A stretch of 64,000 bases of DNA from a virus (taxonomy: Duplodnaviria; Caudoviricetes), in IMG/VR virus record IMGVR_UViG_3300025575_000014, positions 1,393 to 65,392 of that record; one strand, given 5' to 3'. Of the stretch, positions 16,395 through 42,269 are shown one piece after another. Position numbers and translations under genes: made by a program. Position 1 is the stretch's first letter; the number at the start of each line of letters is the position of its first letter. Under the pieces are notes generated by a model. That model was given only the letters and a program-made list of their open reading frames with translations, had not been told where the DNA came from and did no database searches.

Positions 16395-16397
16395 ATT

Positions 16398-18046: not shown

Positions 18047-18154
18047 ATAATCACTCCTTTAGTTTGCTACCGACATCAATGTCGGCAACAAAATATTAAA
18101 TATTTCCTAATCACTTTCATGTTTAATCTTCACATCCATCATCTTCTAACTTAA

Positions 18155-18895
18155 TTAATAATCTCTATGTTCAACAAGTGTTTCATCGTTGCTACTTTGA
18201 TCGTCTATTTCTATTTTTGTGTAAGCTTGATCTACCCTCATCATAAACATATCAAATTTATCTAAGTGCCTTAATGATTTTAGATCGCTAGCTTTTTTCT
18301 TCCATTCCAATCTATGCCCTTTATCAATTTCTTTCCATCTAGTAAGCATGAACTCAACATTTAATTTTTCGTCTTCTTCACATTCAAATCTAACTATATG
18401 TTTTTCGTAATCGTTCCAATCGCTACTAACTTCTTCTACCTCAAAGCTAGTATTGATATAGCCACCGTCATATTCATAATTTTCTATTTTTTCAGTATCT
18501 ATTACATTAGAACAATATTCGCACCATTTTTCATAAATTTTAGTTATCTTTATATCACTTGAAATTTCTTCGCAAGTCATTAATTCTTTAAAGTTTTCTA
18601 ATAACTTTCTATTTTCTAAAGAGGTACCCTTAAGTACATCAACTAGTACAGAATCAAGTTTACATACATATTGTGAGTAATCATAATTTTCTAAATAAGG
18701 AACCATTACTGATTTAACTTTGTTTTCAATTACCTTTTTAACTTCTCCATTCCATCCGAACATATCATTTAGAGCCGAAGAAACGCACTCTTCAAGTTTT
18801 GCTGCTATTACCTTTTCAACTATTCCCTTTTCTATTTCCTGCGATATACAATCTTTTATACTATTTTCTAAATTCATAATAATTTCCCCCTCCAA
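18155..18895 (-). CDS. Hypothetical phage protein (probable start 18877)
   Basis: 240-aa acidic ORF with GGAGGGGG RBS. Confidence 0.75.
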   Translation of the reverse strand: MEGEIIMNLENSIKDCISQEIEKGIVEKVIAAKLEECVSSALNDMFGWNGEVKKVIENKVKSVMVPYLENYDYSQYVCKLDSVLVDVLKGTSLENRKLLENFKELMTCEEISSDIKITKIYEKWCEYCSNVIDTEKIENYEYDGGYINTSFEVEEVSSDWNDYEKHIVRFECEEDEKLNVEFMLTRWKEIDKGHRLEWKKKASDLKSLRHLDKFDMFMMRVDQAYTKIEIDDQSSNDETLVEHRDY

Positions 18896-19105
18896 TTTAT
18901 CTACAAATAAAACTCCATTTTCTCAACCCTTTTAAAGTTGCTACCACACCATGTTTTCTACAAAAACCAATATAATTAATTCTACTTTTATTTGTCATTG
19001 CAATTCCCTCCATTATTTTGTATAATAATGGTCAGGTAAGTAAATTCACAAAATCTATTACCTAACCAATTTCTTAATCTAAGTACCCTCGCCGAAGGGT
19101 GCTTT

Positions 19106-19471
19106 TTAATTTGCTTGATAAAAGTCATACTCACAATCGAAATTATCAAGAACACTCCCTGCCGAACATTCCTCGAGTGCATCTTCTAAATCAGAATTTC
19201 TATTCTCTAATTCCTCAATCCTCTCCTGCATGTACTCCCTTGTTTCAAATTTATCATGTAACGTTTTGTCTAATAAATCAAATAGTATCTCTTTGTCCAT
19301 TGTAGCGAGGTTAAGCATACCCACCGTGAAGTTGTTATTGTATTCATTATCAATTACCACCAAAGCTTTAGAACCTCTTGTGATGCCCTTGTGAGTTGTT
19401 ATTTCTGTATATCCTGTCGCTAAACCTTCTTCAATTTCTGTTGATATTAAATTTACGATTGACATTGGCAA
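19106..19471 (-). CDS. Hypothetical protein
   Basis: 121-aa ORF with AAGGAGG RBS. Confidence 0.7.
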   Translation of the reverse strand: MPMSIVNLISTEIEEGLATGYTEITTHKGITRGSKALVVIDNEYNNNFTVGMLNLATMDKEILFDLLDKTLHDKFETREYMQERIEELENRNSDLEDALEECSAGSVLDNFDCEYDFYQAN

Positions 19472-19548
19472 TTCCTCCTTATTATTCCATTTCTTATTAT
19501 ATTATATTCCTATAAGTAATATTATGCAACAGTTTGTTGTTATTTTAT

Positions 19549-20148
19549 TTATAGCTTTACATATTCAATTCCATAGACTTTGTAAGTATTTTTAAAAAAC
19601 TCCAATCCTTTTTCTTTTGCTATGTCATGGTGTAAAGTACAAAGAGATATTTTGCTTTTGTCATCTAATGTATAAATAATAGCTTCTTGTCCGCAAATGC
19701 TACACTTAGAATGTTTAAGACAATAAAACAAGTACGTTGAAATTTCAGTAGTCCTGTTAAGTGCTAGGTCTGTTAAAGGTATACTATTCATTATTACAAA
19801 CTCAATTACAAAATCTATAAAAGCTCTTGCAACCTCCAGTGTGCAATTAGATAAGCTAAAATCTTCTAATCCGCTTTCCATGCAAAAATTATATTTAAAC
19901 AACTGTTTAATGTACTCAGGAACATCTCCATTCCAATCCGCTATATCTTTAAATGTTGCGTAAAGTTTTTTCCTTTGTTCAGCATTTATTTTTCTACCAT
20001 CATCAAATGTTATTTCTCCATGTATACCCTTATTTGTAGAATATTTTAATAATTCTTCTTTAGTAATGTCTAAGCCAACCGTCAAAAATGCCTTTCCCTT
20101 AATTTCTTTTATACTTAAAACTTGTACTGGCTGGCTAAAGTTTTTCAT
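19549..20148 (-). CDS. Putative HNHc nuclease of the recombination module
   Basis: INAEQRKKLYATFKDI...FSLSNCTLEVARAFIDFVIEF...KCSICG...LCTLHH. Confidence 0.7.
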   Translation of the reverse strand: MKNFSQPVQVLSIKEIKGKAFLTVGLDITKEELLKYSTNKGIHGEITFDDGRKINAEQRKKLYATFKDIADWNGDVPEYIKQLFKYNFCMESGLEDFSLSNCTLEVARAFIDFVIEFVIMNSIPLTDLALNRTTEISTYLFYCLKHSKCSICGQEAIIYTLDDKSKISLCTLHHDIAKEKGLEFFKNTYKVYGIEYVKL

Positions 20149-20153
20149 AAGTG

Positions 20154-21305
20154 TTATTCCTCCTCGATTTTCCCTTTTGCAGTAGCTACATAATCATAGT
20201 TGTTATCTTTTAAAAATTTACTAAGTGCAACGACTTCTCCCATATTCCCTTGTATTCTCATTTCAATGAAGAATCGTTCCTCTGCTATTTCTGAAACTGT
20301 TTTTTTATCCTCTACTGATTCAGCACTTATATTGATATTTCTAACCAATTCTTTTGTTTTTGTTTCTCGCTCTAGTTTTTCAGTAGCTTTATTTTTTTCA
20401 GCTTCATCCTTTAAATACTGTGTTCTTTCAGCTTGTAACTCCTTATTCAACTTTTCCGTTTTTTCATCCTCAATAGCTTTTAATCTTAATCTTTCTTTTT
20501 CTTCCGCAGCTTCTTTTGCAATTCTTTTATTTCTTTCTTCTATCCTTACTTTTTCCGCTTCTTCAAATTTAGCTTTTTCTATTCTCTCAAGAACTAATTT
20601 TTCCGCTTTAGCTTTATTATCTGCTATAGCTTTTAACTCATTAGCCTTTGTTCTTTCTGCCCTGTCGTTTATCGTAGATAGTATTTGAGATATAGGAAAT
20701 TCTGTATTTATAAGCATTTGAAAATCCGAAATATCTAATTTGGCATCAATGTTTTTATTGCAATTTTCTATAGTATCTTTTATTATTTGTAGGTTTTCAA
20801 CTTCTTGTTGTTGTTCTTGTTGCAGAAGATAACCTCGTCTTTCAATATCCTCCTTAACCTTTTTAACGCTCATAGAAACGTTCATATATTCATCATGTAC
20901 AATCAGTTTACTACTATACTTATCATTCAACAGAAGCTCTTTAACCATGCTTTCTATGTGCGTTTGTGCCATTAATCTTTTAATCTCTCTAGCCTTATCA
21001 TCAAATACAGAAATTGCTTGTTTGATAGGGTTTTCAACTTCTACTATTAATCCAACTAATTCCTTGCATTGGCCTTCAAACCTAGTTACTGGAATAAGCA
21101 TTTCTTTCTTAATTCCTTTTCTATAAGTTTCTAAATCATTTTTCGTCTTAGAAAGTTCTTTTTGCATCGCTTTACAATCTTTTAAAGTGCTTTCAGAAAC
21201 TACTAGATTTTTATATTTTTCAGATCCAGCTATTAAAGAAGCCTTTACCTCTTCAAAATTTATTTGTACGATCGGTAATTGTTTTTCTAGTTTTATATCC
21301 AACAT
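20154..21305 (-). CDS. DUF1351-like coiled-coil protein
   Basis: LPIVQINFEEVK...YKNLVVSE...K..RKGIKKEMLIPV..FE; next to ERF. Confidence 0.7.
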   Translation of the reverse strand: MLDIKLEKQLPIVQINFEEVKASLIAGSEKYKNLVVSESTLKDCKAMQKELSKTKNDLETYRKGIKKEMLIPVTRFEGQCKELVGLIVEVENPIKQAISVFDDKAREIKRLMAQTHIESMVKELLLNDKYSSKLIVHDEYMNVSMSVKKVKEDIERRGYLLQQEQQQEVENLQIIKDTIENCNKNIDAKLDISDFQMLINTEFPISQILSTINDRAERTKANELKAIADNKAKAEKLVLERIEKAKFEEAEKVRIEERNKRIAKEAAEEKERLRLKAIEDEKTEKLNKELQAERTQYLKDEAEKNKATEKLERETKTKELVRNINISAESVEDKKTVSEIAEERFFIEMRIQGNMGEVVALSKFLKDNNYDYVATAKGKIEEE

Positions 21306-21567
21306 ATTAATTCCCCCTATTTTTCAAAACTTTGTTACATCAAAATATTTTTGAAGTGTGCCGCTATTCACCATCACTAAATATCGTGTTATTACCAGCT
21401 ACAAGAGTTATTTCACTAATAGTATTAACTAGCTTTACATTAGTCCACCCTTTGCCATCGTTGAATACAATAACTTTATGATAATCTTCCTTTTCTATTC
21501 TTTTTAACAAATCATATACAGTCATGTTTATACCTCCTTATTGCGTACTGTTATCATATTATGCCAT

Positions 21568-22407
21568 CTATATTATGCCTTCCAGCGGATTAGCTACCTT
21601 ATCAGGACGCAGCCCCAATTTCTCCATTGCTTCACTCCAAACCTCAAAAGTCATTTGTTCAAACTTTGTATTGTTATAAGCGGCACATATTATCGCTTGC
21701 TTAACGCCTTTTTTATCTGCCAACACTTTGATTGCTTCAATTTTGTTCTTATCAATCAATTTTTCTTCGCTTTTCTCATTACCCATTTTCTTAAAATTTT
21801 CATAAGCACTTTTTTTATCTTCTTGTTTGATGAATTTAACTTCTTTTGCATTGTACTTTTTGCACAATGAAGCTTCGTTATATCCCTTGCTCGCTGCCAT
21901 ATCAACTAACATTTTAGTAGTTACATTATTAGAATCAAAATTGTGTTTATCATTCTTCGTTCCTGTAGGTTCCTTATTATCTGCATCATCTTCATCAGTT
22001 GGTAATCCAAATGTTTTTAACAAAAAGTACCTCTCGTTGTACGAAAGTGCAGTCCCCACTGCCTTACTTATATCATCCGTTTGTTGCCCTAGTGCTAGCC
22101 ATTCAGTAACTAACATTTCTGTAGGTGTTTCTGCATTTATCCATGTATAAGTTAGTTTGAAAGTCACTATAAAATCCATACTTTCTTTTCCTTTAGCGGT
22201 TATATAATTATGCTTTTCCCAATGCACCGTAGAATAATCAACACTAGGTATAAGCAATAATCCCATTTCATCCATCTTAACTTTGATTTTACTTAGTACT
22301 TGGCTACCACTTACATAATCAAAACCATAACTTTTAGTATCTTTTGAAAATCCTGTTATAGACTTTCTAACCTCAACTATTTTCTGAAATAAATTTAATT
22401 TTTCCAT
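21568..22407 (-). CDS. ERF-family ssDNA annealing protein
   Basis: LNLFQKIVEVRK...FDYVSGSQVLSKIK...KAVGTALSYNERYFLLKTFGLPTDEDDAD. Confidence 0.82.
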   Translation of the reverse strand: MEKLNLFQKIVEVRKSITGFSKDTKSYGFDYVSGSQVLSKIKVKMDEMGLLLIPSVDYSTVHWEKHNYITAKGKESMDFIVTFKLTYTWINAETPTEMLVTEWLALGQQTDDISKAVGTALSYNERYFLLKTFGLPTDEDDADNKEPTGTKNDKHNFDSNNVTTKMLVDMAASKGYNEASLCKKYNAKEVKFIKQEDKKSAYENFKKMGNEKSEEKLIDKNKIEAIKVLADKKGVKQAIICAAYNNTKFEQMTFEVWSEAMEKLGLRPDKVANPLEGII

Positions 22408-22426
22408 ATTGTCCCCCTATTTATTT

Positions 22427-23044
22427 TTAAACACATTTTTCTAAAAACTCATATTTCTTTTTCAACGACACAGGCAATTCTCTAAGAAGTTTACTCACCC
22501 AACTTTGACTTAAATTTAATTTTTCTGCTATTTTCATTTGTGAAGATTCATCAATAAAAAACATTTTTAATATCACTTTATGGCTAGGTTTAAGTTCGTT
22601 AATAAGTAGATTAACTTCTTTTATTTCTTCGTGCTTTAAAACTAATTCCTCACACTGATCTGGACTTGAAATCAAATTCATTAATGTCAATGTATTTCCA
22701 CAACCATCGGTGGCAAACGGTTCATCAAAACTTACTTCGCACATGTTATATTTCTTTTTATTTGATTCCTTTCTTATTTGCATTAAAAAGTCATTTGTTA
22801 CAACCCTGCCTAGCAATGTGGTGAACAGATAACCTTTTTCAATATCATAAGCGTTAAAAGCTTTCGCCAATGCCATGCTGCCTATTTGGTTTAAATCCTC
22901 AATATCTAAATCCGAATTTGTAAATTCAAGTGCTTTTTTATAAATTAATCTTTCGAACTGTTCAAATGTTTCGCCGCAAGTCATTTCTCTTATTTCAATT
23001 CCTTTTTCTTTTGTTTTTAACTTTATCGCTTTTCGTATCTCCAC
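22427..23044 (-). CDS. Sigma-70-family factor resembling sporulation SigE/SigK
   Basis: EDLNQIGSMALAKAFNAYDIEKG, VSFDEPFATDGCGNTLTLMNLI (cf. SigE VSFDEPLNIDWDGNEL), region 4 SQMKIAEKLNLSQSWVSKL. Confidence 0.82.
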   Translation of the reverse strand: MEIRKAIKLKTKEKGIEIREMTCGETFEQFERLIYKKALEFTNSDLDIEDLNQIGSMALAKAFNAYDIEKGYLFTTLLGRVVTNDFLMQIRKESNKKKYNMCEVSFDEPFATDGCGNTLTLMNLISSPDQCEELVLKHEEIKEVNLLINELKPSHKVILKMFFIDESSQMKIAEKLNLSQSWVSKLLRELPVSLKKKYEFLEKCV

Positions 23045-27500: not shown

Positions 27501-27531
27501 AATAAAAAAGAGAAAGGTTTTACCCTCTCTC
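27501..27531 (-). terminator. Intrinsic terminator (repeat family)
   Basis: GAGAGAGG-gtaaaa-CCTTTCTC-TTTTTT; 30/31 identical to 28557-28587. Confidence 0.8.
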
Positions 27532-27536
27532 AATAA

Positions 27537-28289
27537 TTAACTTTTAGTTATTTTTCTTACACCTTCAGGTGTTAATAATGTCGGCATCCTTTCGCCTAAC
27601 TTTTTGTAGTCGATCTCCTCTTTTAAATTGAAACTTTCTAGCGTCAATCTAGTTCTCAAAGTGTCTATGGAAATATCGTATTCTTCAGCTATTTCTCTCA
27701 TAGTTTTAAACCCTTTTAAATTTATGGTATTGCCAAGTTGTTTTATTATCGCATTTTTTATACAGTTTTCTGCATATAATCTTGAAGAAAATTTCTCGAT
27801 ATTTTTATCATTTCCCCAAAACTTTATAACATCTAAATACCATCTTTCATCTTCAAATATAAAACTAACCACTTTTTCATCTTTAAGATAGTGTATTTCT
27901 CCGTTTTCATCTATTATTATTGCACCATCATTTCTTCTAGTTTGATTTTCTAAACAAATTTCATCCCATTTTTTTAAAATTTTATCGCTATTATTTGAAA
28001 TTAATTCTCCCCAGTTCGGTATTTCTTGGTTTTTACTCTTTAAGTTTTCTAGTTTATAGACTAATTCATCTATGTTTATAATATCATCCTCATAATCGCA
28101 TATGGTATTAAAGCCATTTTCCCACCCTCTATCATGACGTGATGCGTAATTAGTAAGTATTGCAGTGTGTATTTTTTCAATTATCAGATCAAATACGTCA
28201 CTGACGGTTCCGCTTTTATCCAATATATTGTTTTGCTGATTTGCATACTTCGATAATTCTACTAATTGTTTCAATGTCTCTTTATTCAT
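27537..28289 (-). CDS. Hypothetical protein with C-terminal HTH
   Basis: TMREIAEEYDISIDTLRTRL HTH at the C-terminus. Confidence 0.7.
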   Translation of the reverse strand: MNKETLKQLVELSKYANQQNNILDKSGTVSDVFDLIIEKIHTAILTNYASRHDRGWENGFNTICDYEDDIINIDELVYKLENLKSKNQEIPNWGELISNNSDKILKKWDEICLENQTRRNDGAIIIDENGEIHYLKDEKVVSFIFEDERWYLDVIKFWGNDKNIEKFSSRLYAENCIKNAIIKQLGNTINLKGFKTMREIAEEYDISIDTLRTRLTLESFNLKEEIDYKKLGERMPTLLTPEGVRKITKS

Positions 28290-28291
28290 TT

Positions 28292-28489
28292 TTACACACC
28301 CCTTTTATTGTTTTTCATATACTTTAAAAATTCATAATTTCCGTTTGTTGATTTAAGGTTTTTTCTCCACGTACACCTAGCTTCTCTAAAAGTCATACAT
28401 TTAGGTATGTCGGTATCGCGTTGAACTATCTTATTTAATAGTTTTTGATATACATTCATTGATATTTGCCCCCTCTTTATTTTAAACAT
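28292..28489 (-). CDS. Hypothetical protein (probable start 28459)
   Basis: AGAGGGG RBS before MNVYQK; first gene after the consensus promoter. Confidence 0.55.
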   Translation of the reverse strand: MFKIKRGQISMNVYQKLLNKIVQRDTDIPKCMTFREARCTWRKNLKSTNGNYEFLKYMKNNKRGV

Positions 28490-28515
28490 TATTTAACTAA
28501 CTCTCTATACTTCAT

Positions 28516-28544
28516 ATTATACACACACGTGTGTGTATTGTCAA
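28516..28544 (-). promoter_or_regulatory. Perfect SigA promoter TTGACA-N17-TATAAT containing a 20-bp palindrome
   Basis: Palindrome ATACACACACGTGTGTGTAT at 28519-28538 fills the spacer. Confidence 0.9.
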
Positions 28545-28556
28545 TCATTTCTAATA

Positions 28557-28587
28557 AATAAAAAAGAGAAAGGTTTTATCCTCTCTC
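28557..28587 (-). terminator. Intrinsic terminator (repeat family)
   Basis: Near-identical to 27501-27531. Confidence 0.8.
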
Positions 28588-28676
28588 CATCCCAGCACAA
28601 CTCTCAATAGATTGATTAACCTCACTTGAACTTATTTTCAATTCCTGCATTGTTTCCAGAACTCTTTCTCTTGTAT

Positions 28677-28886
28677 TCATCTTTCTAACTCATTTTCATA
28701 TTGATTCGGAGCAAATTTCAAAGATATTATTTCAATAGGTTCGTTGATGTTTTCTTTTATTTTTATATTCCAAAATTCTTGTTGGTCATTTCTATATATA
28801 TCCGCAACTTTACGAGTTAATAAGAGTTCCTCTTTAAGAATTTTATTTTCATTGATTAAAGTAGTAAGTTTATTTTTGAATATCAT
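28677..28886 (-). CDS. Hypothetical protein
   Basis: 69-aa ORF with AAGGAG RBS. Confidence 0.6.
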   Translation of the reverse strand: MIFKNKLTTLINENKILKEELLLTRKVADIYRNDQQEFWNIKIKENINEPIEIISLKFAPNQYENELER

Positions 28887-28901
28887 TCTCCAACTCCTTT
28901 T

Positions 28902-29090
28902 TTATTCTTTTTCTCTTTCATTCTCATATTCATGCTCGCAATTTCTTGATCCGTAATAATTGCAGGAATCTTTTATACTTTCAACCATGATTTCATGTCG
29001 TGCATTTTCCCATTCTTTAGCTTCTTCTGTTTTACATTCATTTAACATAATAGAATGATATACGTTTTCTAGTGCTGCAGCTGCATTCAT
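28902..29090 (-). CDS. Hypothetical acidic protein
   Basis: 62-aa ORF with AAGGAG RBS. Confidence 0.6.
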   Translation of the reverse strand: MNAAAALENVYHSIMLNECKTEEAKEWENARHEIMVESIKDSCNYYGSRNCEHEYENEREKE

Positions 29091-29111
29091 TAATATTCTC
29101 CTTATTTATTG

Positions 29112-29273
29112 TTATAAATCTATATCAACCACTGGAAAATTTATTTTATATCTCATTTCTTCTTTGAAATTTTCAAACTGGTTATATCTTTTGAGAAATT
29201 CTTTTTCTGTGATTATTCCTCTTTGTTCCTGCGCTATAAAATGACCAATTATTTGATTAAACATTTCAGACAT
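29112..29273 (-). CDS. 53-aa hypothetical protein
   Basis: Manual ORF MSEMFNQIIGHFIAQEQRG...VDIDL. Confidence 0.45.
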   Translation of the reverse strand: MSEMFNQIIGHFIAQEQRGIITEKEFLKRYNQFENFKEEMRYKINFPVVDIDL

Positions 29274-29464
29274 TTTTTTATTCATTTTTCTAACTCCTTA
29301 TCATTGCTACCAATACTGAACTCTATTATGTGTTTATATTCCATATCTAAACTAAATTTAATTTCTTTTAGCCTTCCATCAGCATCAACCGAAAAGTACT
29401 TTTCATTTTTACCATTTTCTACGCAAATTCCATTTTTATAATCATATAGGTTATATTGTTAATT

Positions 29465-30433
29465 TCATTCTCTTTCATTCTCCTTGTTACTAATATGCTC
29501 GCATTCTTTAATTGCTTGGTCTATGAGATATTGAGGAACTTTATATTTTTGACTTAACATGTTTAATGCTTGCTTGTAAATATATTTACTTTCTTTCAGG
29601 TTATCAATACATTTAATTAGTTCCTTGGCTTCTGTAATGGCTTTGTCCTTTTCTAAACTATTTTTGTTACTATAATTTTTATACACTTGTAACGTCCTCT
29701 CAATTGCTTTAATTTTGATTTCTTGGAGTTCGGAATTTCTAGCTTTTGCTAGCATTTGTTTATGGTCATTCTCATTTAACTTCTTTTCTATTGCTGCATA
29801 CCATGCTTTTACTTCCATGTGCTTGCGCTTGCTATATTTAACACCTCTATTAAGGCATTTAAAGCGTTGTTTCATGTGGTTGCTATAATTAGTCTGCCAC
29901 TCTCTCATTTTCTCTACACCATCAAAATATCGCGTATTAGATAATATGCTTTCATTTTTCTTGTTTTTAAATTTAGGCACTATGAGAGCGTGAATATGCC
30001 AAGTTTTTTCATCTTTGTGTAAAGTTGCATAGACACAATTACTCCCAAAGTTATCTTTTAGGAATTTAGCATTATCGTTTTTCCATAATTCTAAATCCGT
30101 TTTTGATAATCCTTTAAAAAAGTCAGGTGATGCGGACATTAATAACGATCTTGCTATTATTGCATTTTTTCTTAATTTAATATCTGTTATATAGTTTTTG
30201 ACATTATTGATTACGTTTTTATCGCCTATTAATATTTCGTTTTTTATATTAGTATTTGCATTTGCAACTTCGTTTTCTCGTTCCATATGATTAACAAATC
30301 CATTTAATGAATTGACGGTTTTGTATTTGTCAGCTATTCTAAATATTGCATAATAAAAATTTGAGTTTTTACTTATAGTTATGTCTTTCAATTTTTCTGT
30401 TTTAACTGGTGTTCTAAAATCTTCCCAACTCAT
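29465..30433 (-). CDS. mobV: MOBV (Mob/Pre) relaxase
   Basis: YAIFRI..K, NHMER (catalytic His region), RKNAIIARSLLMSASPDFF, ATLHKDEKTWHIHALIVP (HxDE..H.H), WQTNY...LNRG; coiled-coil C-terminus. Confidence 0.92.
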   Translation of the reverse strand: MSWEDFRTPVKTEKLKDITISKNSNFYYAIFRIADKYKTVNSLNGFVNHMERENEVANANTNIKNEILIGDKNVINNVKNYITDIKLRKNAIIARSLLMSASPDFFKGLSKTDLELWKNDNAKFLKDNFGSNCVYATLHKDEKTWHIHALIVPKFKNKKNESILSNTRYFDGVEKMREWQTNYSNHMKQRFKCLNRGVKYSKRKHMEVKAWYAAIEKKLNENDHKQMLAKARNSELQEIKIKAIERTLQVYKNYSNKNSLEKDKAITEAKELIKCIDNLKESKYIYKQALNMLSQKYKVPQYLIDQAIKECEHISNKENERE

Positions 30434-30466
30434 TTATTTGCTCCTTGTTTATTGTTTTGCAAAATG

Positions 30467-30482
30467 CCGTACTGAGTTACGG
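30467..30482. promoter_or_regulatory. Candidate oriT hairpin
   Basis: CCGTA-CTGAGT-TACGG inverted repeat ~35 bp upstream of mobV; MOBV oriTs typically are hairpins at the mob promoter, and the GAG|TTAC loop resembles the pMV158 GTG|TTAT nick context. Confidence 0.35.
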
Positions 30483-30550
30483 TTTATATTCCTATCTAAT
30501 TACTAGGTTTTACCATATGCAACCTTCAGAATCTGTTTTTTATGTTACCA

Positions 30551-31915
30551 TTAATTACTAACTTTTTGTACATTGTTTGCATATTTTGGTTGATTATAGT
30601 AAATGTTTTGATTGTCTAAAAATGGCAATTTATTATGAGCAATTATTAATACCATGTCATCGTTTATACGTCTGATTTCACCTGGTGTAAATAATTTCTT
30701 AGTAGTAGTTCCTGTTGTTACTTTGTCACCGTTATGTGTCTCTGTTTTCACTTCTCTATCATCACATAAATTTGAAATATAACTCATTGTTTTATAATCA
30801 GAAATAGAAGGTAGTATAACTTTAGATTTAAGATTATTCAGAATTGTGGTTGCGTTATTCTCGCCATATATTTCATAGAGTTTTGATATATTTTGTAAGC
30901 ATACTAAAAATCCAACTTCTTCTGATCTACATACTGAAACCGTTTCTTCAAAATTTGATATTTTACCAATATTCTGAAATTCATCGAGCATGAATAATAT
31001 CGGTAATCCTTTATTGTGCATAACCTTGTCAATTAATTGAGTATAGAATACCGATAAGAACGGTGATAGGTATTTACTCTTTGACGTATCATATTTGATG
31101 TACAATGCAATAGGTCTAGTTCTTAAATCGAGCGGCTTAAAATCGCTATTAGAGGTATTGTTGATTATTTTGTGATCTGTGAATAACTGTAGACTTGTTA
31201 ATAACGTTGACATTATGCTTGACATTGTTTTTGGACTTCCAGCACTAGCCATAAATATTTTAAATTGTATAGAAATATCTTCATTTTGATTATTACCTAA
31301 TATTTCTGTTAATTCCTCTAGTGGTGTATTGATTATAAGTTTTAAAGCTTGCGATATATTTTTACTGTATAATAAAGCACTTGTGAATAAAGGAATACTC
31401 ATGTTTTCCCATTCATTTCCGCTTTTCCCTGAACCACCATTAACAATTAAATTGCTTGCTAATTCTCTAACTTCTGTAAATCCTTCGCAGTTTTCTAAAA
31501 GATTGTATTTTGCATGTTTGCCTAAAGGCTCAAACAATATCGGTTCTCTGCCTATACTTCTTTGATACTCACTCGTTAAATCCCACAACTCACCTTTAGG
31601 ATCACCTATTATAAGGCTACTTTTAGGCAAATCATCGCTTAATAGATTAGGCAGAGGAATACTTGTTGTCTTCCCTTCTCCTGTTGGTGCTATAACACAG
31701 ACACCTTCTAATGTCTTCTTGAAGGTCAATTGAAACTCTTTTGATAATACTAGTCCGTCTGTTCCAGTAAGTTTTCCTAAATCCTTTTTAGTACCTAATT
31801 TTGAGGTTGCTAGTTTTTGCTTATTTTTTCTAAATAATAAAACTATATCTATAACCGGGATGCACATTGCTAACCATAATAATTTTTGCATCATTACGAA
31901 CTCTTCCACCGACAA
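30551..31915 (-). CDS. virD4: VirD4/TraG-like type IV coupling protein
   Basis: One N-terminal TM, Walker A APTGEGKT, GDPKGE, Walker B FMLDEFQNIG, LQNISKLYEIYG, ILNN...LFTPGEI. Confidence 0.92.
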   Translation of the reverse strand: MSVEEFVMMQKLLWLAMCIPVIDIVLLFRKNKQKLATSKLGTKKDLGKLTGTDGLVLSKEFQLTFKKTLEGVCVIAPTGEGKTTSIPLPNLLSDDLPKSSLIIGDPKGELWDLTSEYQRSIGREPILFEPLGKHAKYNLLENCEGFTEVRELASNLIVNGGSGKSGNEWENMSIPLFTSALLYSKNISQALKLIINTPLEELTEILGNNQNEDISIQFKIFMASAGSPKTMSSIMSTLLTSLQLFTDHKIINNTSNSDFKPLDLRTRPIALYIKYDTSKSKYLSPFLSVFYTQLIDKVMHNKGLPILFMLDEFQNIGKISNFEETVSVCRSEEVGFLVCLQNISKLYEIYGENNATTILNNLKSKVILPSISDYKTMSYISNLCDDREVKTETHNGDKVTTGTTTKKLFTPGEIRRINDDMVLIIAHNKLPFLDNQNIYYNQPKYANNVQKVSN

Positions 31916-31976
31916 TTACTCCTTGTATATTGATTGTAGATATGGGGTATACTTAAATTTAAAAGGAAGTGATATT

Positions 31977-32054
31977 ATGATATTATTATTAAGTGTTGGT
32001 GAAGTTTTGAGTTGGTGCGCTGCTGCTTATTGCTTGTATCGAGGTTTGTTTTAA
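31977..32054 (+). CDS. 25-aa hydrophobic peptide
   Basis: MILLLSVGEVLSWCAAAYCLYRGLF after AAAGGAAGTG RBS; stop overlaps the stop of the convergent RHH gene. Confidence 0.45.
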   Translation: MILLLSVGEVLSWCAAAYCLYRGLF

Positions 32055-32218
32055 ATTTCTTCAAGTCCGTCTTTTGATGATTTATTAAGACTTATATATT
32101 TCAGATAAAATTCACATGCTTCTTTTATAAATGCTGATTTTTCCTCCATGGCGTATATGGCTGCATAGATTTTTTGGTCTTTAGTTGTGTTCTTAAAACT
32201 TACAACTATTTTTGACAT
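32051..32218 (-). CDS. 55-aa RHH/ParR-like DNA-binding protein
   Basis: MSKIVVSFKNTTKDQKIYAAIYAMEEKSAFIKEACEFY; AAGAAGGA RBS. Confidence 0.7.
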   Translation of the reverse strand: MSKIVVSFKNTTKDQKIYAAIYAMEEKSAFIKEACEFYLKYISLNKSSKDGLEEI

Positions 32219-32436
32219 ATTTACGTCCTTCTTTGTATTGTTGTATTAATAATATATACAAAGTTTAATCAATTGGTTACAATGAATTACTCCATAAATA
32301 AGAAAAAGTCTAGCAAATGCTAAACTTTTAAATAAACTTTAATTGTTGGTTTTTATCAGAATAGCCTAAAAATTTTAATATTATTCTTTCTCGCTTTTTA
32401 CCGTAATATTCACTTTTAGTACTACTTTGTAGCTAA

Positions 32437-32610
32437 TTAAAAATCTAAATCAAAATCACTTTCCTGTTTTTTTTCATTTTTCATAACTTTAACCGGCATT
32501 TCTTTTTTTATTAACCCTTTAATATAAATGCTAGGACTTAACTGAGATAAGAGAAAATTATACATGTCTTTCTCTGTTTCTTTAAACGAAATGCTAACTT
32601 TTAAAGCCAA
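32437..32610 (-). CDS. ParR-like partition adaptor (57 aa)
   Basis: MALKVSISFKETEKDMYNFLLSQLSPSIYIKGLIKKEM...DFDLDF: RHH N-terminus and acidic tail; TTG start overlaps the parM stop. Confidence 0.75.
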   Translation of the reverse strand: MALKVSISFKETEKDMYNFLLSQLSPSIYIKGLIKKEMPVKVMKNEKKQESDFDLDF

Positions 32611-33458
32611 ATTGATTCACCTCTTTTTTTAAAACCTCTGCTATTGGCAAATATTGAATCTTCTATTAATTGAACATTAGGTATTCTATTTTTAAACGCT
32701 TTATGAAGCATTATAGCTCCACCACCAACTAACATAATGTCTAAGGTCTTGATACTATACCCAACTTGTAACTCATTCACAAGCCCTTCTACATAGCTTT
32801 TAAATATATCTAATGCAAAACCAATATTTCTATCTTCTCCATATATTTTTAATCCATTTTTAATTAATCTTGGTGCATCATCAGCTTTTAGATCAAGTGC
32901 ATATTTGCTATTAACCATTTTTATAAAATCTGAATATAAATTTAAGGTCCCAATAGGCAAACTATATGGTTTTTTAACTTTTTTATTTTCTAACAATGCG
33001 ATATCAGTTGTTCTACCTCCGATATCTACAATAACACCGTTAAATTCTTTGTTTATTAAAGCAGCAATGCCCTCTGGATATACTTCTATATCTTCAATTA
33101 TTAGCTTTCTTTCAATCCCATTTAAACCAATATTCTGCATCCTGTCTTTTAATAATAATTCTTTAAAAGCATTTTTATCTTCTTTGTATTGACTAAGAGG
33201 TAAACCCACACAAATCTGATTATTTATTTCATCCGTACTCATTGCTACCGCCGCAAGAAACATTTCTTTAATATATTCTTTTTTAATCTTACGGTATTCA
33301 GTATTATATGAACCTTCTTCCATATAAAAAGTACCATCCATGGTTGTTAACGCAATGGAACTGTCAAGTATATTGTCCGTCTTTGCAACTTTAGACGTAA
33401 AATTAACACCCTTTGAGGTTTTTGTTGCATAATTACCTAAATCCACACCTATTATCAT
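32601..33458 (-). CDS. parM: ParM/StbA-family actin-like partition ATPase
   Basis: Phosphate-1 GVDLGNYATK, VYPEG, phosphate-2 IVDIGGRTTD, adenosine LVGGGA, connect FANSRGF. Confidence 0.92.
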   Translation of the reverse strand: MIIGVDLGNYATKTSKGVNFTSKVAKTDNILDSSIALTTMDGTFYMEEGSYNTEYRKIKKEYIKEMFLAAVAMSTDEINNQICVGLPLSQYKEDKNAFKELLLKDRMQNIGLNGIERKLIIEDIEVYPEGIAALINKEFNGVIVDIGGRTTDIALLENKKVKKPYSLPIGTLNLYSDFIKMVNSKYALDLKADDAPRLIKNGLKIYGEDRNIGFALDIFKSYVEGLVNELQVGYSIKTLDIMLVGGGAIMLHKAFKNRIPNVQLIEDSIFANSRGFKKRGESIWL

Positions 33459-33539
33459 TAAATATATCTCCTTTTAACTACTTCTTACTATATAGTATTC
33501 CATATTGAGCAAAATGTAACCAATGTTGTTTTGCAAAAT

Positions 33540-33586
33540 AAAAAACCCATATACTTACATGAAAGGCAAGCATACAGGCTTTAAAC
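33540..33586 (-). terminator. Intrinsic terminator isolating the par operon from upstream phage genes
   Basis: 14-bp G:U-rich stem GCCTGTATGCTTGC/GTAAGTATATGGGT followed by a T run. Confidence 0.7.
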
Positions 33587-33715
33587 TATTGTGGAATTAT
33601 ATTATTTTATTACAGCAAACATTCAAGAACCTATTACATAATTTGATCTACTTATATTATACAACATATTTACAGTTATAAATTTAATTATGTCAGATTA
33701 TTTTTGAAGCACGTC

Positions 33716-33898
33716 TTATAATAGTTCTGGTGATAATTCACTTTTAAGCCAACCTACACCCTCTAACTTAACTACCCATATGTCATATACATTTTTATCT
33801 TCAATGAAAGGCTTACACTTGCTTTTAAGCATTTCTACATTGTTTGCTTCTACAATATGTGTCCTACCATTAATATAACTAATTCTTGCTTCTAACAT
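33716..33898 (-). CDS. Hypothetical protein
   Basis: 60-aa ORF with AGGAGG RBS. Confidence 0.6.
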   Translation of the reverse strand: MLEARISYINGRTHIVEANNVEMLKSKCKPFIEDKNVYDIWVVKLEGVGWLKSELSPELL

Positions 33899-33927
33899 AG
33901 CCCATTCCTCCTTAATTTTTATTCCGA

Positions 33928-34239
33928 CTATCTCATTCTCTCTTTTACTCTCATACCAATATCAGAAATTATTTTATTTAATCTCTTATTCTCTACCATA
34001 AGCACATCATAATCACGTTCAGCAGAATCAATACCTAACAAAGTATCTACTGAGACATTAAAGGTTTTGGCTATTAGCACTATTCTGTCTAAAGAAGGTT
34101 CTCTGTCACCTATCTCGATATGGCTTATCATTGATTTACTGTATTTTAATTTATTTGCTAATTCTAATATGTTCCAATTGTTCCGCTTGCGTAATTTTCT
34201 TACCATTTCCCCGAATATATTAATACGTTTCATCCCCAT
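33928..34239 (-). CDS. XRE-family HTH regulator
   Basis: FGEMVRKLRKRNNWNILELANKLKYSKSMISHIEIGDREPS...FNVSVDTLLG. Confidence 0.88.
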   Translation of the reverse strand: MGMKRINIFGEMVRKLRKRNNWNILELANKLKYSKSMISHIEIGDREPSLDRIVLIAKTFNVSVDTLLGIDSAERDYDVLMVENKRLNKIISDIGMRVKERMR

Positions 34240-35625: not shown

Positions 35626-37467
35626 CTAATACGGAATAGGTTCGTCTGTGACATAGTTAGGATTAAGCTCCATGTTTTTATTCTTTTCCCACCCATAATT
35701 TACTATCTCTTTGGTTCTATCATTGTAAAATCTTAATGTCTTTTTACTAAAATTCATTCTTATAACTTTTCTTATTCCACTTTCACGATCTTTTAAACTT
35801 GTAATGAAAGCATCGCACTCCGCATTATCTCCAAAATTTCTTTCTATCGCAATTATATTATCAGCTTTATTGGCGATATTGTTTGAACCACTTATATCCA
35901 ATTTATCTAAATTACCTTCTTGTGCATCATCTGTTTTAATTTCACCTTTTCCTTTGTTGGGATGCGCAAGTAGAACCACATGAACATTATTGCTAATAGC
36001 GAAGTTTTTACAACTTTGAATAAAATTTGCTTGTGCTGAATACAATTCATCTGCTACTTCTTCGAGCTTACTCATAAGATTATCAATCACAAACAACTTA
36101 ACACCATAGCGATCAGCAGCAATACCCATAATTTTAAAGAAATCATCCATTTTCTTGCTAACTTTGTCTGAACTTCTATCGAATAAATAAAATTTGTCTT
36201 GGTGCCATTTTTTTATTTCTGTTATGATATTCGGTTTTAATTCCGCTTTAGACTTATATTTACACTGAATAAATCTAAAATAATCGTCTTTGTTTCCAGC
36301 TATTTGTTTGTATAACCAATCCTGTATTTTATGCTCCGACATTTCACCACTGTATAAAAACACTTTTGTATTTTTCATAAGATTATGTGCTATCACCTGG
36401 CTTATAAATGTGGTTTTACCTTCTCCGTTTCTACCGAATATTATTGTGAGTTCTTGTTCTTTCCAATCCTCCACATGTTCGTCATATTCAATAAACCCTG
36501 TTTCGATACCGTTAGATTGTATTTCGATATTTGATTTATATTCTAATTGCGATACCTCAATTAAGCCTTCTGGAACTTCATTTATAGCTTTATTTATTAA
36601 TTCTAGAATGTATTTTTCACCCTCATAATAAAGGTCTTCGTTAGCATCTTTGTGTTTTTCAGATGTTATAATTTTTACATTTTTAAGTTTCATTTTTATT
36701 TTATCAGCCATTTCAAAACCCGGCTTATCATTATCAGCATAAACTATAAATTCTTTTATACATTGCAACCATTCCCAACAATTATCAATCCAAGTAAGAT
36801 TATTTGAGCCACTAGGTACACTCACAACATTTTTATAACCACTCTGATAAATTGCCATCGCATCCGGCTGGCCTTCCGTAATTACAAGAGGTTTAGACAT
36901 ATCAATATGTTCCATTCCCCATAAAATCGGCATTGTGTCAAGTTCACAACCACCCTTTAGTCCACCTTTTATAGCTTCCCTATAACTAACGAATACTAAT
37001 TTACCACCTTTGAAGTACTGAAATACATAAACGTCTTTGTTTGCGAATCTACCTTGCTTAACATTTAATTCATTCAACGTCTGTTTAGTAATTTTTCTTT
37101 TATCCATGTAAGAAATTAATGAATCGGTTAATTCTATAGTTTTAATATTCGGGAATTTATATATTTTCTTAGAAGTTTTGTTTTGTAAATGAACTCCGCT
37201 TTTACCTACCAATTCCCCGACTTTTTCTACAGCTTCACAAAATGACATATTTTCATAATCTTGATAATATCTATAAATATCAATTTGTTCTCCGCATGAA
37301 TTACACCTATACATCATTCCTTTAGCAAACCAACTCATAGAAGGTTTTTTATCTGTGTGAAAAGGACAACTCACCATCTTTTTAATTTCTCTTAACCCTA
37401 ATCCACTTAAAATTATTTCTTTTGCTCGTTGCCCTAAATCTTCTTTTAATTCCACTGCATCTAGCAT
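35626..37467 (-). CDS. Primase-helicase (Zn finger, TOPRIM, SF4 helicase; T7 gp4/Twinkle-like)
   Basis: CPFHTDKKPS...CNSCG; ITEGQPDA, YADNDKPG, KDANE; GRNGEGKT, FVIDNLM, LAHPNK, DISGS. Confidence 0.92.
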   Translation of the reverse strand: MLDAVELKEDLGQRAKEIILSGLGLREIKKMVSCPFHTDKKPSMSWFAKGMMYRCNSCGEQIDIYRYYQDYENMSFCEAVEKVGELVGKSGVHLQNKTSKKIYKFPNIKTIELTDSLISYMDKRKITKQTLNELNVKQGRFANKDVYVFQYFKGGKLVFVSYREAIKGGLKGGCELDTMPILWGMEHIDMSKPLVITEGQPDAMAIYQSGYKNVVSVPSGSNNLTWIDNCWEWLQCIKEFIVYADNDKPGFEMADKIKMKLKNVKIITSEKHKDANEDLYYEGEKYILELINKAINEVPEGLIEVSQLEYKSNIEIQSNGIETGFIEYDEHVEDWKEQELTIIFGRNGEGKTTFISQVIAHNLMKNTKVFLYSGEMSEHKIQDWLYKQIAGNKDDYFRFIQCKYKSKAELKPNIITEIKKWHQDKFYLFDRSSDKVSKKMDDFFKIMGIAADRYGVKLFVIDNLMSKLEEVADELYSAQANFIQSCKNFAISNNVHVVLLAHPNKGKGEIKTDDAQEGNLDKLDISGSNNIANKADNIIAIERNFGDNAECDAFITSLKDRESGIRKVIRMNFSKKTLRFYNDRTKEIVNYGWEKNKNMELNPNYVTDEPIPY

Positions 37468-38345
37468 TAAAAATCATCCCTCCTTGTAACTGGCTTATAT
37501 TTGGGTTTTTCTTTAATTTGTGTTTTGAATGGCTGATTTAGATAATTTTCAAAATTGTTAACACCAAATAACGTTTGCGGTCTTAAATAAATCCTCATAT
37601 CCTTTTCATTAAGACTAGGCTCGTGATTCCACTCGATGGTTTTTATGTCTATTACTTTTATGAAATCTCCTAATGTGTATTTAGCGTTATCGTTAAACCT
37701 AGCATTTATAAGTTTTCTAGTCGCACTACTATTACTACTAAATTTTTTATCTGCTTTTAAATTTAGGTAATCGATTATTTCTTTAAAAGGTATTTCGGTA
37801 GATGTATCTTTTAAGGGTTCGTTATTAGTAATAGGACTTATAGCATTACCTTCTTTACCTTCTTTACCTTCTTTACCTTCTTTACCTTCTTTACCTTCTT
37901 TATTAGTGGTTAGTTGCTGGTTAGTTGCTGGTTGGTTGCTGGTTAGTTGCTGGTTAGTCTGCTGGTTGCATATTCCTTGAAACGATTGAAATTGCTCGGT
38001 TGGTTGCTGGTTAGTATGCTGGTTGAATTTTTCATAATTTACGATAGAATATATTGTAAACTTCGGAGTAGCTTTTATGTTTACAATCATATTATCTTCT
38101 AAAAGTCTTTTCAAACACGTTCTAATCCTTTGTTCTCCTATGTTTAACTCTTTACTCCATTGAGTTCTCCCAAATATAAATTCACCATATCCCAAGGTGT
38201 ATTTTATATTTTGATAATAGCTTGTTTTGGTTTCTTTTTTATACCTAGCTTTACCTAACATGGTAATCCAAATTTTTAAGCAATTCGCATCGGTATAAAT
38301 CCAATGTTCAAAAATAGACCTGCACAATGGGAATGAATTAAACAT
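37467..38345 (-). CDS. Phage replisome organiser / replication initiator
   Basis: Start MFNSFPLCRSIFEHWIY after AAGGAGG; wHTH; Q/N repeats; C-terminal IPFKEIIDYLN...LRPQTLFG.NNFENYLNQ conserved phage C-terminal domain. Confidence 0.85.
   Translation of the reverse strand: MFNSFPLCRSIFEHWIYTDANCLKIWITMLGKARYKKETKTSYYQNIKYTLGYGEFIFGRTQWSKELNIGEQRIRTCLKRLLEDNMIVNIKATPKFTIYSIVNYEKFNQHTNQQPTEQFQSFQGICNQQTNQQLTSNQPATNQQLTTNKEGKEGKEGKEGKEGKEGNAISPITNNEPLKDTSTEIPFKEIIDYLNLKADKKFSSNSSATRKLINARFNDNAKYTLGDFIKVIDIKTIEWNHEPSLNEKDMRIYLRPQTLFGVNNFENYLNQPFKTQIKEKPKYKPVTRRDDF
37848..37975. repeat. Iteron-like tandem repeats inside the initiator gene (likely lytic ori)
   Basis: 9-bp TTCTTTACC tandem (KEG repeats) and ~12-bp GTTGCTGGTTAG-like repeats (NQQLT/NQP). 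Confidence 0.75.
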
Positions 38346-38437
38346 TGTATTTCCTCCTTTGATAAATATAGAATAATATCCCTGCGGAGGTAATATAAAA
38401 TCATGTACTTTTAAAAAAATACGTGTTATAATATAAG

Positions 38438-38512
38438 TAATATATTTCAAAAGCAACTAAGTTTATAAACCTTCACTTTGTCAACCGGCCATGGTTGGCA
38501 ATTTTCTTTTTT
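38438..38512 (+). ncRNA. Putative antisense RNA to the initiator leader
   Basis: TG-t-TATAAT at 38424-38432, terminator TTGTCAACC-ggccat-GGTTGGCAA-TTTTCTTTTTT at 38478-38512; opposing promoter TTTACA-N18-TATAAT at 38533-38562. Confidence 0.6.
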
Positions 38513-41058: not shown

Positions 41059-41556
41059 TTACAATGTTAGTTTATTTTCTCCAACTTGTGCTGATACAGT
41101 TTGTGGAGTTTCATTTGCTTTTAGTGCATCTTGAGTATTGGAAGATACTTCTTTTGTAACAACAACATCAGCTTCATCTTTGACAGGATCATAAACTGGT
41201 GCTAATAAAGTTTCTACTTGATTATTAACTTCCCCGACTACACTTTCCCTAAAGTGGTCTAGCTGTGATTGTGTAAGGAATGGGAATTTAGCTAATAGTA
41301 TTTTATCAAACATGGTGGCCTTTAAATTCCCTGCATTGGGGATTAACTTAAACAATTGTTCTACTTGATAAAATATACCTTTGGCTACTGTAGCACGAGA
41401 ATTATAAGTATCTGCCCCTAATTTGACCGTCTCTACTTGTTTTTTCTTACCAAGGTATAAACTTACCTGTGCTATTAAATATGTAGTAGCAAGCCCTACA
41501 ATGGTGAATATAGCTTCTGTTAATATATTTGAAATTCCGTTTATCAATGTATTCAT
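41059..41556 (-). CDS. Holin (LL-H-like)
   Basis: N-terminal TM, QVEQL and ESVVGEVN motifs; adjacent to the endolysin. Confidence 0.65.
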   Translation of the reverse strand: MNTLINGISNILTEAIFTIVGLATTYLIAQVSLYLGKKKQVETVKLGADTYNSRATVAKGIFYQVEQLFKLIPNAGNLKATMFDKILLAKFPFLTQSQLDHFRESVVGEVNNQVETLLAPVYDPVKDEADVVVTKEVSSNTQDALKANETPQTVSAQVGENKLTL

Positions 41557-41573: not shown

Positions 41574-42269
41574 TTATATTAGTATTTTGAAAGACTTGAA
41601 ACCTTTAGCCTCCAATTCTTTTATCCTAGCATCCGCATTTGCTTCATCTGCGAAACTACCTGTTATAACCCGGTATGTTTTATTACCTGTTGTAACTGTT
41701 GGCTTAGAAACAGTTGCAGGCTTAATTGTTATGTTTGGAATATCCTTACCTGTAATGCCTTTTACGATTGCGTTTGCTAATTTTTCAGCATTATATTTAT
41801 TGCAATCACTTTTGGTATCGCAAAAGAATGGCTCCACCAGAATTGCGGTTGCATTAGTATGTTTTAATACGTATAATCCTGGTCTTGAGACACTCCCTCT
41901 GTTATGAAAGCCAAGAGTAGCCATTTGTGTATTTATTCTATCTGCATATACCTTTGCTTTTGCACTTATATACTCAACTTCGCAACCACTAGCCTTATCT
42001 GTTTGGAAAGCATTTACATGAAGACTAACAAATAAGTCTACTTTGGAATTGTTAGCCTTGTTAACTCTATAGGCTAGGCTTTGACCTAACGTTAATTCAC
42101 TTTGCGCAGGTGTTACGTTGATTACTGTATGGCCCAGCTTCTGTAATCCCGCTATTACTAAAGCGCCATATTGTCTATTAACTACTGTTTCTATTAAATA
42201 TCCACCCGCCCCAGTATCTCCGCTGCCACTTCCGTTTAGAGAGTGGCCTAAATCTATCGCAATCCTCAT
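41574..42269 (-). CDS. Endolysin: Amidase_3 plus SPOR domain
   Basis: IAIDLGH, ETVVN, SLHVN, ILVEPFFCD; C-terminal YRVITGSFADEANADARIKELEAKGF. Confidence 0.93.
   Translation of the reverse strand: MRIAIDLGHSLNGSGSGDTGAGGYLIETVVNRQYGALVIAGLQKLGHTVINVTPAQSELTLGQSLAYRVNKANNSKVDLFVSLHVNAFQTDKASGCEVEYISAKAKVYADRINTQMATLGFHNRGSVSRPGLYVLKHTNATAILVEPFFCDTKSDCNKYNAEKLANAIVKGITGKDIPNITIKPATVSKPTVTTGNKTYRVITGSFADEANADARIKELEAKGFKSFKILI

Follow-up and report, generated by a model that had tools for sequence, protein, structure and literature searches.

A conserved T4CP-MobV cassette with a candidate origin of transfer, probably serving mobilization, in a probable plasmid prophage of Clostridium

The stretch of DNA analyzed here (the window; 64,000 nucleotides, namely, bases 1393-65392 of the 65,392-bp linear IMG/VR virus record IMGVR_UViG_3300025575_000014, with window numbering used throughout) is classified as tailed phage DNA (Caudoviricetes) and carries on its minus strand a mobilization unit of ~3.7 kb, from 32304 to 28565. 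This unit combines the gene for a coupling protein, a candidate origin of transfer (oriT), a relaxase gene of the MOBV class (mob) and three small open reading frames (ORFs) between two terminator-like hairpins. Along the minus strand, its features are as follows.

32304-32329, minus strand: hairpin resembling a terminator, which follows the parMR-like genes and bounds the unit upstream
30551-31915, minus strand: VirD4-type coupling protein (type IV coupling protein, T4CP) of 454 amino acids (aa), matched by the Pfam families T4SS-DNA_transf, TrwB_AAD_bind and TraG-D_C
30467-30482, plus strand, opposite to mob: candidate oriT core, the hairpin CCGTA-CTGAGT-TACGG with a 5-bp stem and a 6-nt loop
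29465-30433, minus strand: MOBV (MobM/Pre-type) relaxase of 322 aa, recognized by Pfam Mob_Pre, a MobM match and motifs
29112-29285, minus strand: small ORF of 57 aa directly 3' of the relaxase, for which no family match was found
28902-29090, minus strand: small ORF of 62 aa, found by tblastn with 67-84% identity in the same place downstream of the relaxase in the related loci L003-L007
28677-28886, minus strand: small ORF of 69 aa, the last gene ahead of the operon terminator
28565-28588, minus strand: terminator-like hairpin, the downstream boundary of the unit

A sequence-only reading of this DNA had reported a relaxase with intact motifs (HxDE..H.H and NHMER) and, co-oriented with it, a T4CP with the Walker A, Walker B and DPKGE motifs, and had proposed hidden Markov model (HMM) searches as a check. 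The HMM searches bear this out for both proteins. The relaxase matches Mob_Pre (PF01076) with an E-value of 2.3e-28 and a score of 99.8 bits against a cut-off of 25.5, the match covering positions 4-194 of the 196 in the profile, and MobM of the plasmid pMV158 (PDB 4lvi) is matched at E 2e-10. Motif I, HxxR, is represented by H49 and R52 within ‘NHMER', and the metal-binding cluster HxDE...HxH by H139, D141, E142, H146 and H148, where the segment LHKDEKTWHIH of the relaxase aligns to VHLDESTPHMH of MobM. Both motifs are thus present, and H49, R52, D141, E142 and H146 are invariant across 35 relaxase homologues, down to 39% identity. The catalytic histidine of MobM motif I is His22. Altogether, ~95 homologues of the relaxase were found in public data; viral contigs scanned with this one protein as the query returned nothing, and an alignment-based scan was needed for matches.

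The coupling protein matches T4SS-DNA_transf (PF02534) at E 1e-58 (199.7 bits against a cut-off of 20.1), with PF10412 and PF12696 matched as well. Its Walker A (PTGEGKTT), DPKGE and Walker B (ILFMLDEF) motifs are intact, the Walker boxes are conserved in >20 homologues, and both genes lie on the minus strand. The predicted membrane anchor of this protein, also kept in >20 homologues, is a single N-terminal hydrophobic helix (residues ~10-28, Kyte-Doolittle 1.9), whereas the classical VirD4 has two N-terminal membrane helices.

The two genes are separated by a gap of 117 bp, the plus strand of which reads GCCGTACTGAGTTACGGTTTATATTCC. The hairpin that the same reading had placed just upstream of the relaxase gene is indeed there, 34 nt from the mob start, within a conserved segment that reaches ~30497. 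The case for an oriT at this position is comparative. The strict pattern CCGTANNNNGTTACGG occurs once in the window (0.04 occurrences expected) and, in ~2 Mb of fetched related loci, is found in nine loci, in every one of which it adjoins a homologous T4CP or mob gene. Homologous genes adjoin this core in L001, L003, L004, L005, L008-L011, L013, L014-16, L042, L097 and L123. Only the strict 16-nt pattern and stem-extended cases were counted; a looser 12-nt motif was dropped, with ~6 chance matches expected in 2 Mb by our own estimate and some of its occurrences located far from any mob gene.

The stems around this core vary among the relatives. The group with 55% identity, which includes plasmids of Clostridium botulinum, has the hairpin AACCGTA-GTAAGT-TACGGTT; L005 and L042 share the core GTAGTGAGTTAC, with the stem CACCCCGTA/TACGGGGTG in L042, a high-GC element with a relaxase that is 31% identical to that of the window; L097 has the stem TTGTGTA/TACACAA, and L087 the pMV158-like stems AAAGTATAGTGTGTTATAC. 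An alignment of 13 such sequences, oriented by the motif (on unprocessed intergenic regions, MAFFT misaligned the hairpin), gives a covariation score of 0.197 compared with 0.095 in shuffles, a value reached by 2 of 500 shuffles. Compensatory changes on both sides are seen at five of the nine stem pairs, and 76% of the cells are paired, a fraction that falls to 26-45% with slid partners. Two copies of the core are present in L087, a locus of the species Clostridium mobile, where they are inverted and flank the T4CP gene (~8476 antisense and 9880 sense), and two more, at 9918 and 9969, in L021.

The nick region of the pMV158 oriT, TAGTGTG/TTATAC, lies just upstream of mobM and is cut by MobM between G and T on the strand that is transferred (PMC5863519). 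The invariant core of the hairpins compared here, TA-xTxxGT-TA, matches this mapped region, ...AAGTATAGTGTG/TTATACTTTAC (PMC5863519): the window has CTGAG/TTA where pMV158 has GTGTG/TTA, and the hairpin form of pMV158, ATAGTGTGTTATAC, corresponds to GTAGTGAGTTAC of the relatives. The core lies on the mob-sense strand in L001, L005, L008-L011, L013 and L042, and on the strand opposite to mob in the window, L003, L004, L014-16 and L021; over ~30 nt, the flank TTTATAT(T)CCTATC included, the window reads as the reverse complement of L005. Flips of the oriT orientation relative to mob are common in this cassette family. The retention of the core in both orientations is hard to reconcile with a promoter or terminator and favors a cis-acting site with strand specificity, as expected of an oriT. 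Given that in the window the core is opposite to mob, the plus strand is the candidate nicked strand, and the predicted nick falls between G30476 and T30477. Thus, the original call of a candidate oriT gains a pMV158-type core and covarying stems, and is amended as to the strand. Unlike in pMV158, the core here is off the mob-coding strand, and one inverted repeat is evident instead of three overlapping ones; by analogy, the site in the window would work like the pMV158 oriT but outside that oriT sequence family. A literature search for the core sequence returned unrelated primer matches only.

The conservation of this site bears on one way in which the pair could be used without moving the phage at all, namely, as a decoy T4CP and relaxase that interfere with, or exploit, resident conjugative plasmids. 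Phages and plasmids do compete, although nothing direct points to such a use, and a cognate cis-acting oriT that is conserved with covariation in every lineage is what self-transfer needs and a decoy does not. We consider this possibility highly improbable, compared with mobilization of the element that carries the cassette.

Wherever a related locus extends into the DNA upstream of mob (25 loci, with relaxase identities as low as 35%), the T4CP gene directly precedes mob, an invariable linkage that is what conjugative DNA processing predicts. The search for related phages with and without the block, which had been proposed together with the HMM searches, recovered both kinds. CP022402 and CP022398, each a closed circular plasmid of C. 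botulinum (48-50 kb), have the cassette together with ParM, lysis genes and an annotated, complete virion module of the myovirus type. The pair is adjoined by tail, lysis or virion genes at seven more loci (L005, L014, L017, L019, L020, L086 and L087), and the neighbors in viral contigs and Clostridium genomes include genes for minor tail, tail-fiber and internal-virion proteins and endolysin. One of these loci, L005, a Clostridium sp. contig, contains the pair together with a homolog of the giant virion protein of this phage and an amidase; in C. estertheticum and in metagenome contigs, parM is located upstream of the pair. The backbones in which the cassette resides are unrelated, podovirus-like in the window and myovirus-type in C. 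botulinum. With respect to the C. botulinum-type backbone, for which the comparison with and without the cassette was made, the related phage-plasmid pRSJ14_1 has the equivalent slot without the cassette, which therefore behaves as a module. The cassette is recurrent in clostridial phages and phage-plasmids and is not a one-off.

The strongest competing explanation is that the pair serves the DNA metabolism of the element itself: the MOBV/Pre protein would nick the hairpin for rolling-circle replication before packaging, or for multimer resolution, and the ATPase would be an accessory DNA translocase. The Pfam family is, after all, named ‘plasmid recombination enzyme', the cassette often adjoins parM, a plasmid-stability context, no helper can be named for the element, and no match to Phage_integrase (tyrosine-type/Xer) was found in the six frames of the 65.4-kb contig. 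What this explanation leaves unaccounted for is the linkage of the T4CP with the relaxase in 25 of 25 loci; we know of no role for a membrane-anchored VirD4-type coupling protein in replication or resolution. Furthermore, the element already encodes a primase-helicase and two initiator-like proteins. The C. botulinum phage-plasmids of the CP022402/CP022398 type that bear the cassette also carry XerA-type and other tyrosine recombinases, so that the cassette is no substitute for these, and related phage-plasmids manage without it. These observations on relatives with tyrosine recombinases and relatives without the cassette weaken this main rival, which we rate as unlikely, and leave mobilization as the reading that we prefer.

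The relaxase and T4CP genes evolve under constraint. The pairwise ratio of nonsynonymous to synonymous substitution rates (dN/dS) is 0.08-0.19 for both genes, in a set that includes unsaturated pairs of C. botulinum-type phage-plasmids (dS 0.19-0.45); in comparisons with the window, dS is saturated but the ratio is still far below 1. As judged from these sequence comparisons, both genes are under purifying selection and have been long retained in the related loci. In L013, a viral contig near-identical to the C. botulinum plasmid cassette, the relaxase frame (6044-6811) stops after 258 codons, which may be due to a frameshift or a sequencing error.

These ratios are pertinent to the possibility that the cassette is passive or transitional cargo, brought in by a recent plasmid cointegrate or a mis-joined assembly, or left in a decaying phage that is turning into a mobilizable plasmid, as in P1-like plasmids. 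In enterobacteria, reports of a relaxase and an oriT are almost confined to oversized cointegrates and to P1-like elements from which phage genes have been lost (PMC10879196, PMC10123127), the contig analyzed here is linear and incomplete, and the cassette is a discrete unit between terminators. Nevertheless, the GC content is ~30% over the whole window, with no step in composition or strand bias at the mobilization block; the virion and packaging genes are open and co-oriented; and no inverted or direct repeats that would suggest a recent insertion were found bracketing the block, the only repeat being a duplicated terminator around a neighboring 1-kb cassette. The closed circular phage-plasmids with complete annotated virion modules and the seven additional loci with structural or lysis genes beside the cassette speak against a cointegrate or an artifact, and the dN/dS of ~0.1 in the C. 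botulinum-type lineages indicates long retention rather than decay. The sequence-only reading had itself named misassembly with a separate plasmid and decay of the block (dN/dS near 1) as outcomes that would count against it; the former is unlikely given the pair in two closed C. botulinum phage-plasmids and seven phage-gene loci and the uniform composition, and the ratios found are well away from the latter. Cargo status thus appears even less plausible than a role in the element's own DNA metabolism, and selected mobilization remains the better account.

The neighboring 1-kb cassette is bracketed by terminator hairpins at 27501-27534 and 28557-28590, which are 94% identical (on the minus strand, GAGAGAGG..CCTTTCTC plus a T run), and consists of a promoter that fits the consensus perfectly (28544-28516, TTGACA-17-TATAAT), an ORF of 65 aa and one of 250 aa without a family match. 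Its layout suggests an expression unit complete in itself, possibly swapped in beside the mobilization operon. Neither the small ORFs downstream of the relaxase nor the 250-aa ORF and a 209-aa ORF have a match in Pfam, PHROG or NCBIfam. Small ORFs occupy the same position after the relaxase in L003 and L004, and the 57-aa ORF (29112-29285) is possibly an accessory gene of the operon.

The rest of the window contains the genes of a phage, nearly all of them on the minus strand, including the following.

3-992, minus strand: portal, HMM match, cut by the window start
2139-4007, minus strand: large terminase, HMM match
4254-4964, minus strand: small terminase, HMM match
14669-15793, early region: radical-SAM protein
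16398-17210 and 22427-23044, early region: two sigma-70-family factors
32437-32610, minus strand: ParR-like small ORF that overlaps parM
32601-33458, minus strand: ParM/actin-like partition ATPase (Pfam ALP_N, 3.9e-15; PHROG 691 partition protein, 3.9e-48)
35626-37467, minus strand: primase-helicase of the replication module
37467-38456, minus strand: DnaD/replication-organizer-like initiator of the replication module
41059-41556, minus strand: holin-like protein of the lysis cassette, HMM match
41574-42269, minus strand: endolysin of the lysis cassette, HMM match
42872-50194, minus strand: polyvalent/ejection-type protein of 2440 aa with an ART-PolyVal (ADP-ribosyltransferase) domain at residues ~1331-1464
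50991-52667 and 52682-54481, minus strand: two beta-propeller receptor-binding-like proteins, Atlas leads only
54772-56280, minus strand: internal virion protein, HMM match
58741-60429, minus strand: beta-helix tailspike-like protein, Atlas lead only (score 0.94, TM 0.64)
60857-61816, minus strand: major capsid protein, HMM match

Of the full virion set noted by the sequence-only reading in the same molecule, the portal, terminase, capsid, internal virion and lysis genes are recognizable by HMM. The gene order wraps between the ends of the contig, with the portal at the left end continuing into the head genes at the right end, so the record looks like a nearly complete, permuted phage genome; the CheckV completeness of the source record is 87%, that is, ~13% of the genome is perhaps missing. 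No match for tail tube, sheath or tape-measure proteins was found in the window, which fits a podovirus-like particle without proving one, the morphology being deduced from gene content. In the minus-strand order, a helix-turn-helix (HTH) regulator gene lies between the replication module and parM. Taken together, the gene content suggests that the window is probably most of a temperate, podovirus-like Clostridium phage. Virion, packaging and lysis genes are combined with partition and replication genes, as in phage-plasmids, and with an integrase not found in the contig, this phage appears, from its sequence, to be kept as a plasmid prophage.

Several other features of this genome deserve mention. 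The early region (14669-23044) also encodes a DUF1351 protein and an Erf recombinase, and the two phage-encoded sigma factors suggest that the phage runs its own temporal transcription program. The 2440-aa ART-PolyVal protein, probably an ejected polyvalent protein, shares 64% identity over 785 aa with a 1382-aa protein of the Clostridium sp. contig L005. An HNH endonuclease gene (57969-58649; PHROG 374, E 4e-67), which may be a homing-type insertion, lies amid the structural genes, flanked by the tailspike-like gene and by small virion genes. A search with the primase-helicase yielded just two distant viral contigs as relatives.

With regard to the mating pore, a six-frame search of the 65.4-kb contig, which perhaps lacks ~13% of the genome, gave no match to the VirB4-type AAA_10 or FtsK_SpoIIIE families, and none of the large ORFs of the window is of a mating-pore type. 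The earlier statement that mating-pore genes are absent thus holds for this contig, and with no VirB4-like or FtsK-like ATPase encoded in it, a helper would be needed. The contig accordingly shows the composition of a mobilizable element, with a relaxase and a candidate oriT present and no mating-pair-formation genes found. Candidate helpers exist in the genus: the C. botulinum conjugative plasmid pGA0702E1CS (NZ_KT901798.1, L146/L147) carries a homologous T4CP-MobV pair at 160-2464, in addition to its own CD1115-type T4CP, pore genes and a MobP2 relaxase, so that this family of pairs lives among conjugative elements. The T4CP gene of the second pair is missing from the PLSDB gene table, and the vicinity of the pair in this plasmid showed no match to the strict oriT core.

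All these comparisons suggest that the phage probably carries a selected mobilization cassette that lets a plasmid prophage ride the conjugation pore of a helper. Where a lysogen also harbors a conjugative plasmid or an integrative and conjugative element, the relaxase would nick the prophage, in its circular form, at the G/T step of the oriT loop (30476/30477, plus strand) and remain bound to the 5' end via its catalytic histidine. The membrane-anchored T4CP of the element itself would then pass the relaxase-DNA complex to the mating pore of the helper, and the single strand would enter the recipient, to be rejoined and copied there. With the oriT inverted, the predicted order of entry is T4CP, parM, the HTH regulator and the replication genes first, and mob last. 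The result would be two routes of spread, virions, which depend on the receptor, and conjugative mobilization, which depends on contact but not on the receptor. Nicking, the choice of the nicked strand, docking on the helper, transfer and the fate of the element in the recipient (lysogeny or zygotic induction) are all steps that we infer.

Several observations weigh against this interpretation. At the level of the proteins, the relaxase scores 99.8 bits against the NCBIfam MobV model, marginally under the cut-off of 100, and the T4CP is under the cut-offs of every NCBIfam subfamily, the best being the CD1115 family with 177 versus 250 bits. MOBV/Pre proteins also catalyze site-specific recombination, which could be a second or even the main role of the relaxase. 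The T4CP is short (454 aa, one helix) and shares only 23% identity with its CD1115-type counterpart from a conjugative plasmid of clostridia, so that docking on a known pore is not predictable. The hairpin alone is weak (5 bp, deltaG -3 kcal/mol, z -0.9); its folding energy is not significant and hence was not used as evidence, all the weight coming from comparison. In addition, the first base of the loop is C in the window but G or A in the relatives. The source is a linear viral contig of metagenome type, with a completeness of 87%. A blastn search of 28000-34000 against 50,697 GenBank phage records gave no match, and a tblastn search of the same records with the relaxase and the T4CP gave at most 33% identity, nearly all in unannotated fecal ‘Bacteriophage sp.' contigs; with a close homologue in 0 of the 50,697 records, the kit is not known from a cultured, plaque-forming phage.

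The closest parallel for the relaxase and its site is the MobM/oriT system of pMV158, the MOBV1 prototype (PDB 4lvi, PMC5863519), with which the window shares the Mob_Pre fold family, the HxxR and HxDE..HxH motifs, an oriT just upstream of mob, and the nick core TAGTG(T/A)G/TTA inside an inverted repeat. The differences are nevertheless substantial: the match is distant (E 2e-10 over 150 residues), the relaxase here has a 26-residue N-terminal extension, the stem is CCGTA/TACGG, and the site and mob are on opposite strands. Moreover, pMV158 is a 5.5-kb rolling-circle plasmid that borrows the T4CP of its helper, whereas the element described here is a 65-kb phage with a T4CP of its own. Certain integrative and mobilizable elements (IMEs) and mobilizable plasmids of Firmicutes are built like this element, with a relaxase, an oriT and a T4CP of their own, and borrow no more than the mating-pair-formation channel. 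Streptococcal IMEs that encode a relaxase and their own coupling protein but no pore have reportedly been described (by Coluzzi et al. and by Guedon et al., both in 2017). Unlike this complete-looking tailed phage kept as a plasmid, the Firmicute IMEs lack virion genes.

In having virion along with partition and replication genes but no integrase, the element resembles phage-plasmids (the P1, N15 and SSU5 groups and the clostridial/IEBH community; PMC7969092, PMC10879196). In P1-derived mobilizable plasmids, however, the mobility kit appears after the loss of phage genes or in suspected cointegrates (PMC10879196, PMC10123127), whereas the phage analyzed here combines the kit with a virion set that looks intact, and the kit is shared and conserved among phage lineages. 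Another close parallel is offered by the C. botulinum phage-plasmids CP022402.1 and CP022398.1 (strain Su0604 and a relative), which have the T4CP-MobV cassette with 68% and 56% aa identity, the same oriT core, and ParM, but differ in their unrelated myovirus-type virion module, the tyrosine recombinases and the sense orientation of the oriT. The homologous pair of pGA0702E1CS (KT901798) shows 40% and 41% aa identity to that of the window; unlike the phage, that is a true conjugative plasmid, with pLS20/CD1115-type pore genes and a MobP2 relaxase, and without phage genes.

Surveys of plasmid mobility set phage-plasmids apart, and relaxases and oriTs in them have been reported as rare, defective or artefactual (PMC10123127, PMC10879196). 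In a literature search on phage-encoded relaxases and on phage-plasmids with a coupling protein, no description of the clostridial cassette or of its oriT core was found, which is weak evidence because subscription journals are thinly covered. The database records of the relatives bear generic labels, and MOB-suite (in PLSDB) types both NZ_CP022402.1 (L001) and NZ_CP022398.1 as ‘non-mobilizable'. Together with the missed NCBIfam cut-offs, this indicates that standard pipelines under-call the kit. The parts themselves are ordinary members of known families (MOBV, VirD4-type T4CP, pMV158-like oriT); what is new is their conserved presence in intact-looking phages.

A broader version of the proposal, which we advance tentatively as somewhat short of even in likelihood, is that, across an entire family of intact temperate phages and phage-plasmids in clostridia, mobilization is a regular second route of infection into cells that perhaps lack the phage receptor, where the prophage either becomes established or passes through zygotic induction. 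A bolder variant, under which the membrane T4CP and the relaxase move the plasmid prophage across the sporulation septum, is far less likely. If mobilization via a helper pore does occur, some viruses would bypass receptor specificity by riding conjugation pores, and phage transfer and conjugation, which are usually treated as alternatives, would combine in one element. The host range of phages and gene flow in Clostridia, including species rich in toxin plasmids, would then be tied to the conjugative network. Furthermore, the detection of oriTs could improve with the MOBV core described here (GTA-GTGAGT-TAC, flanked by covarying stems), which is new and widely distributed.

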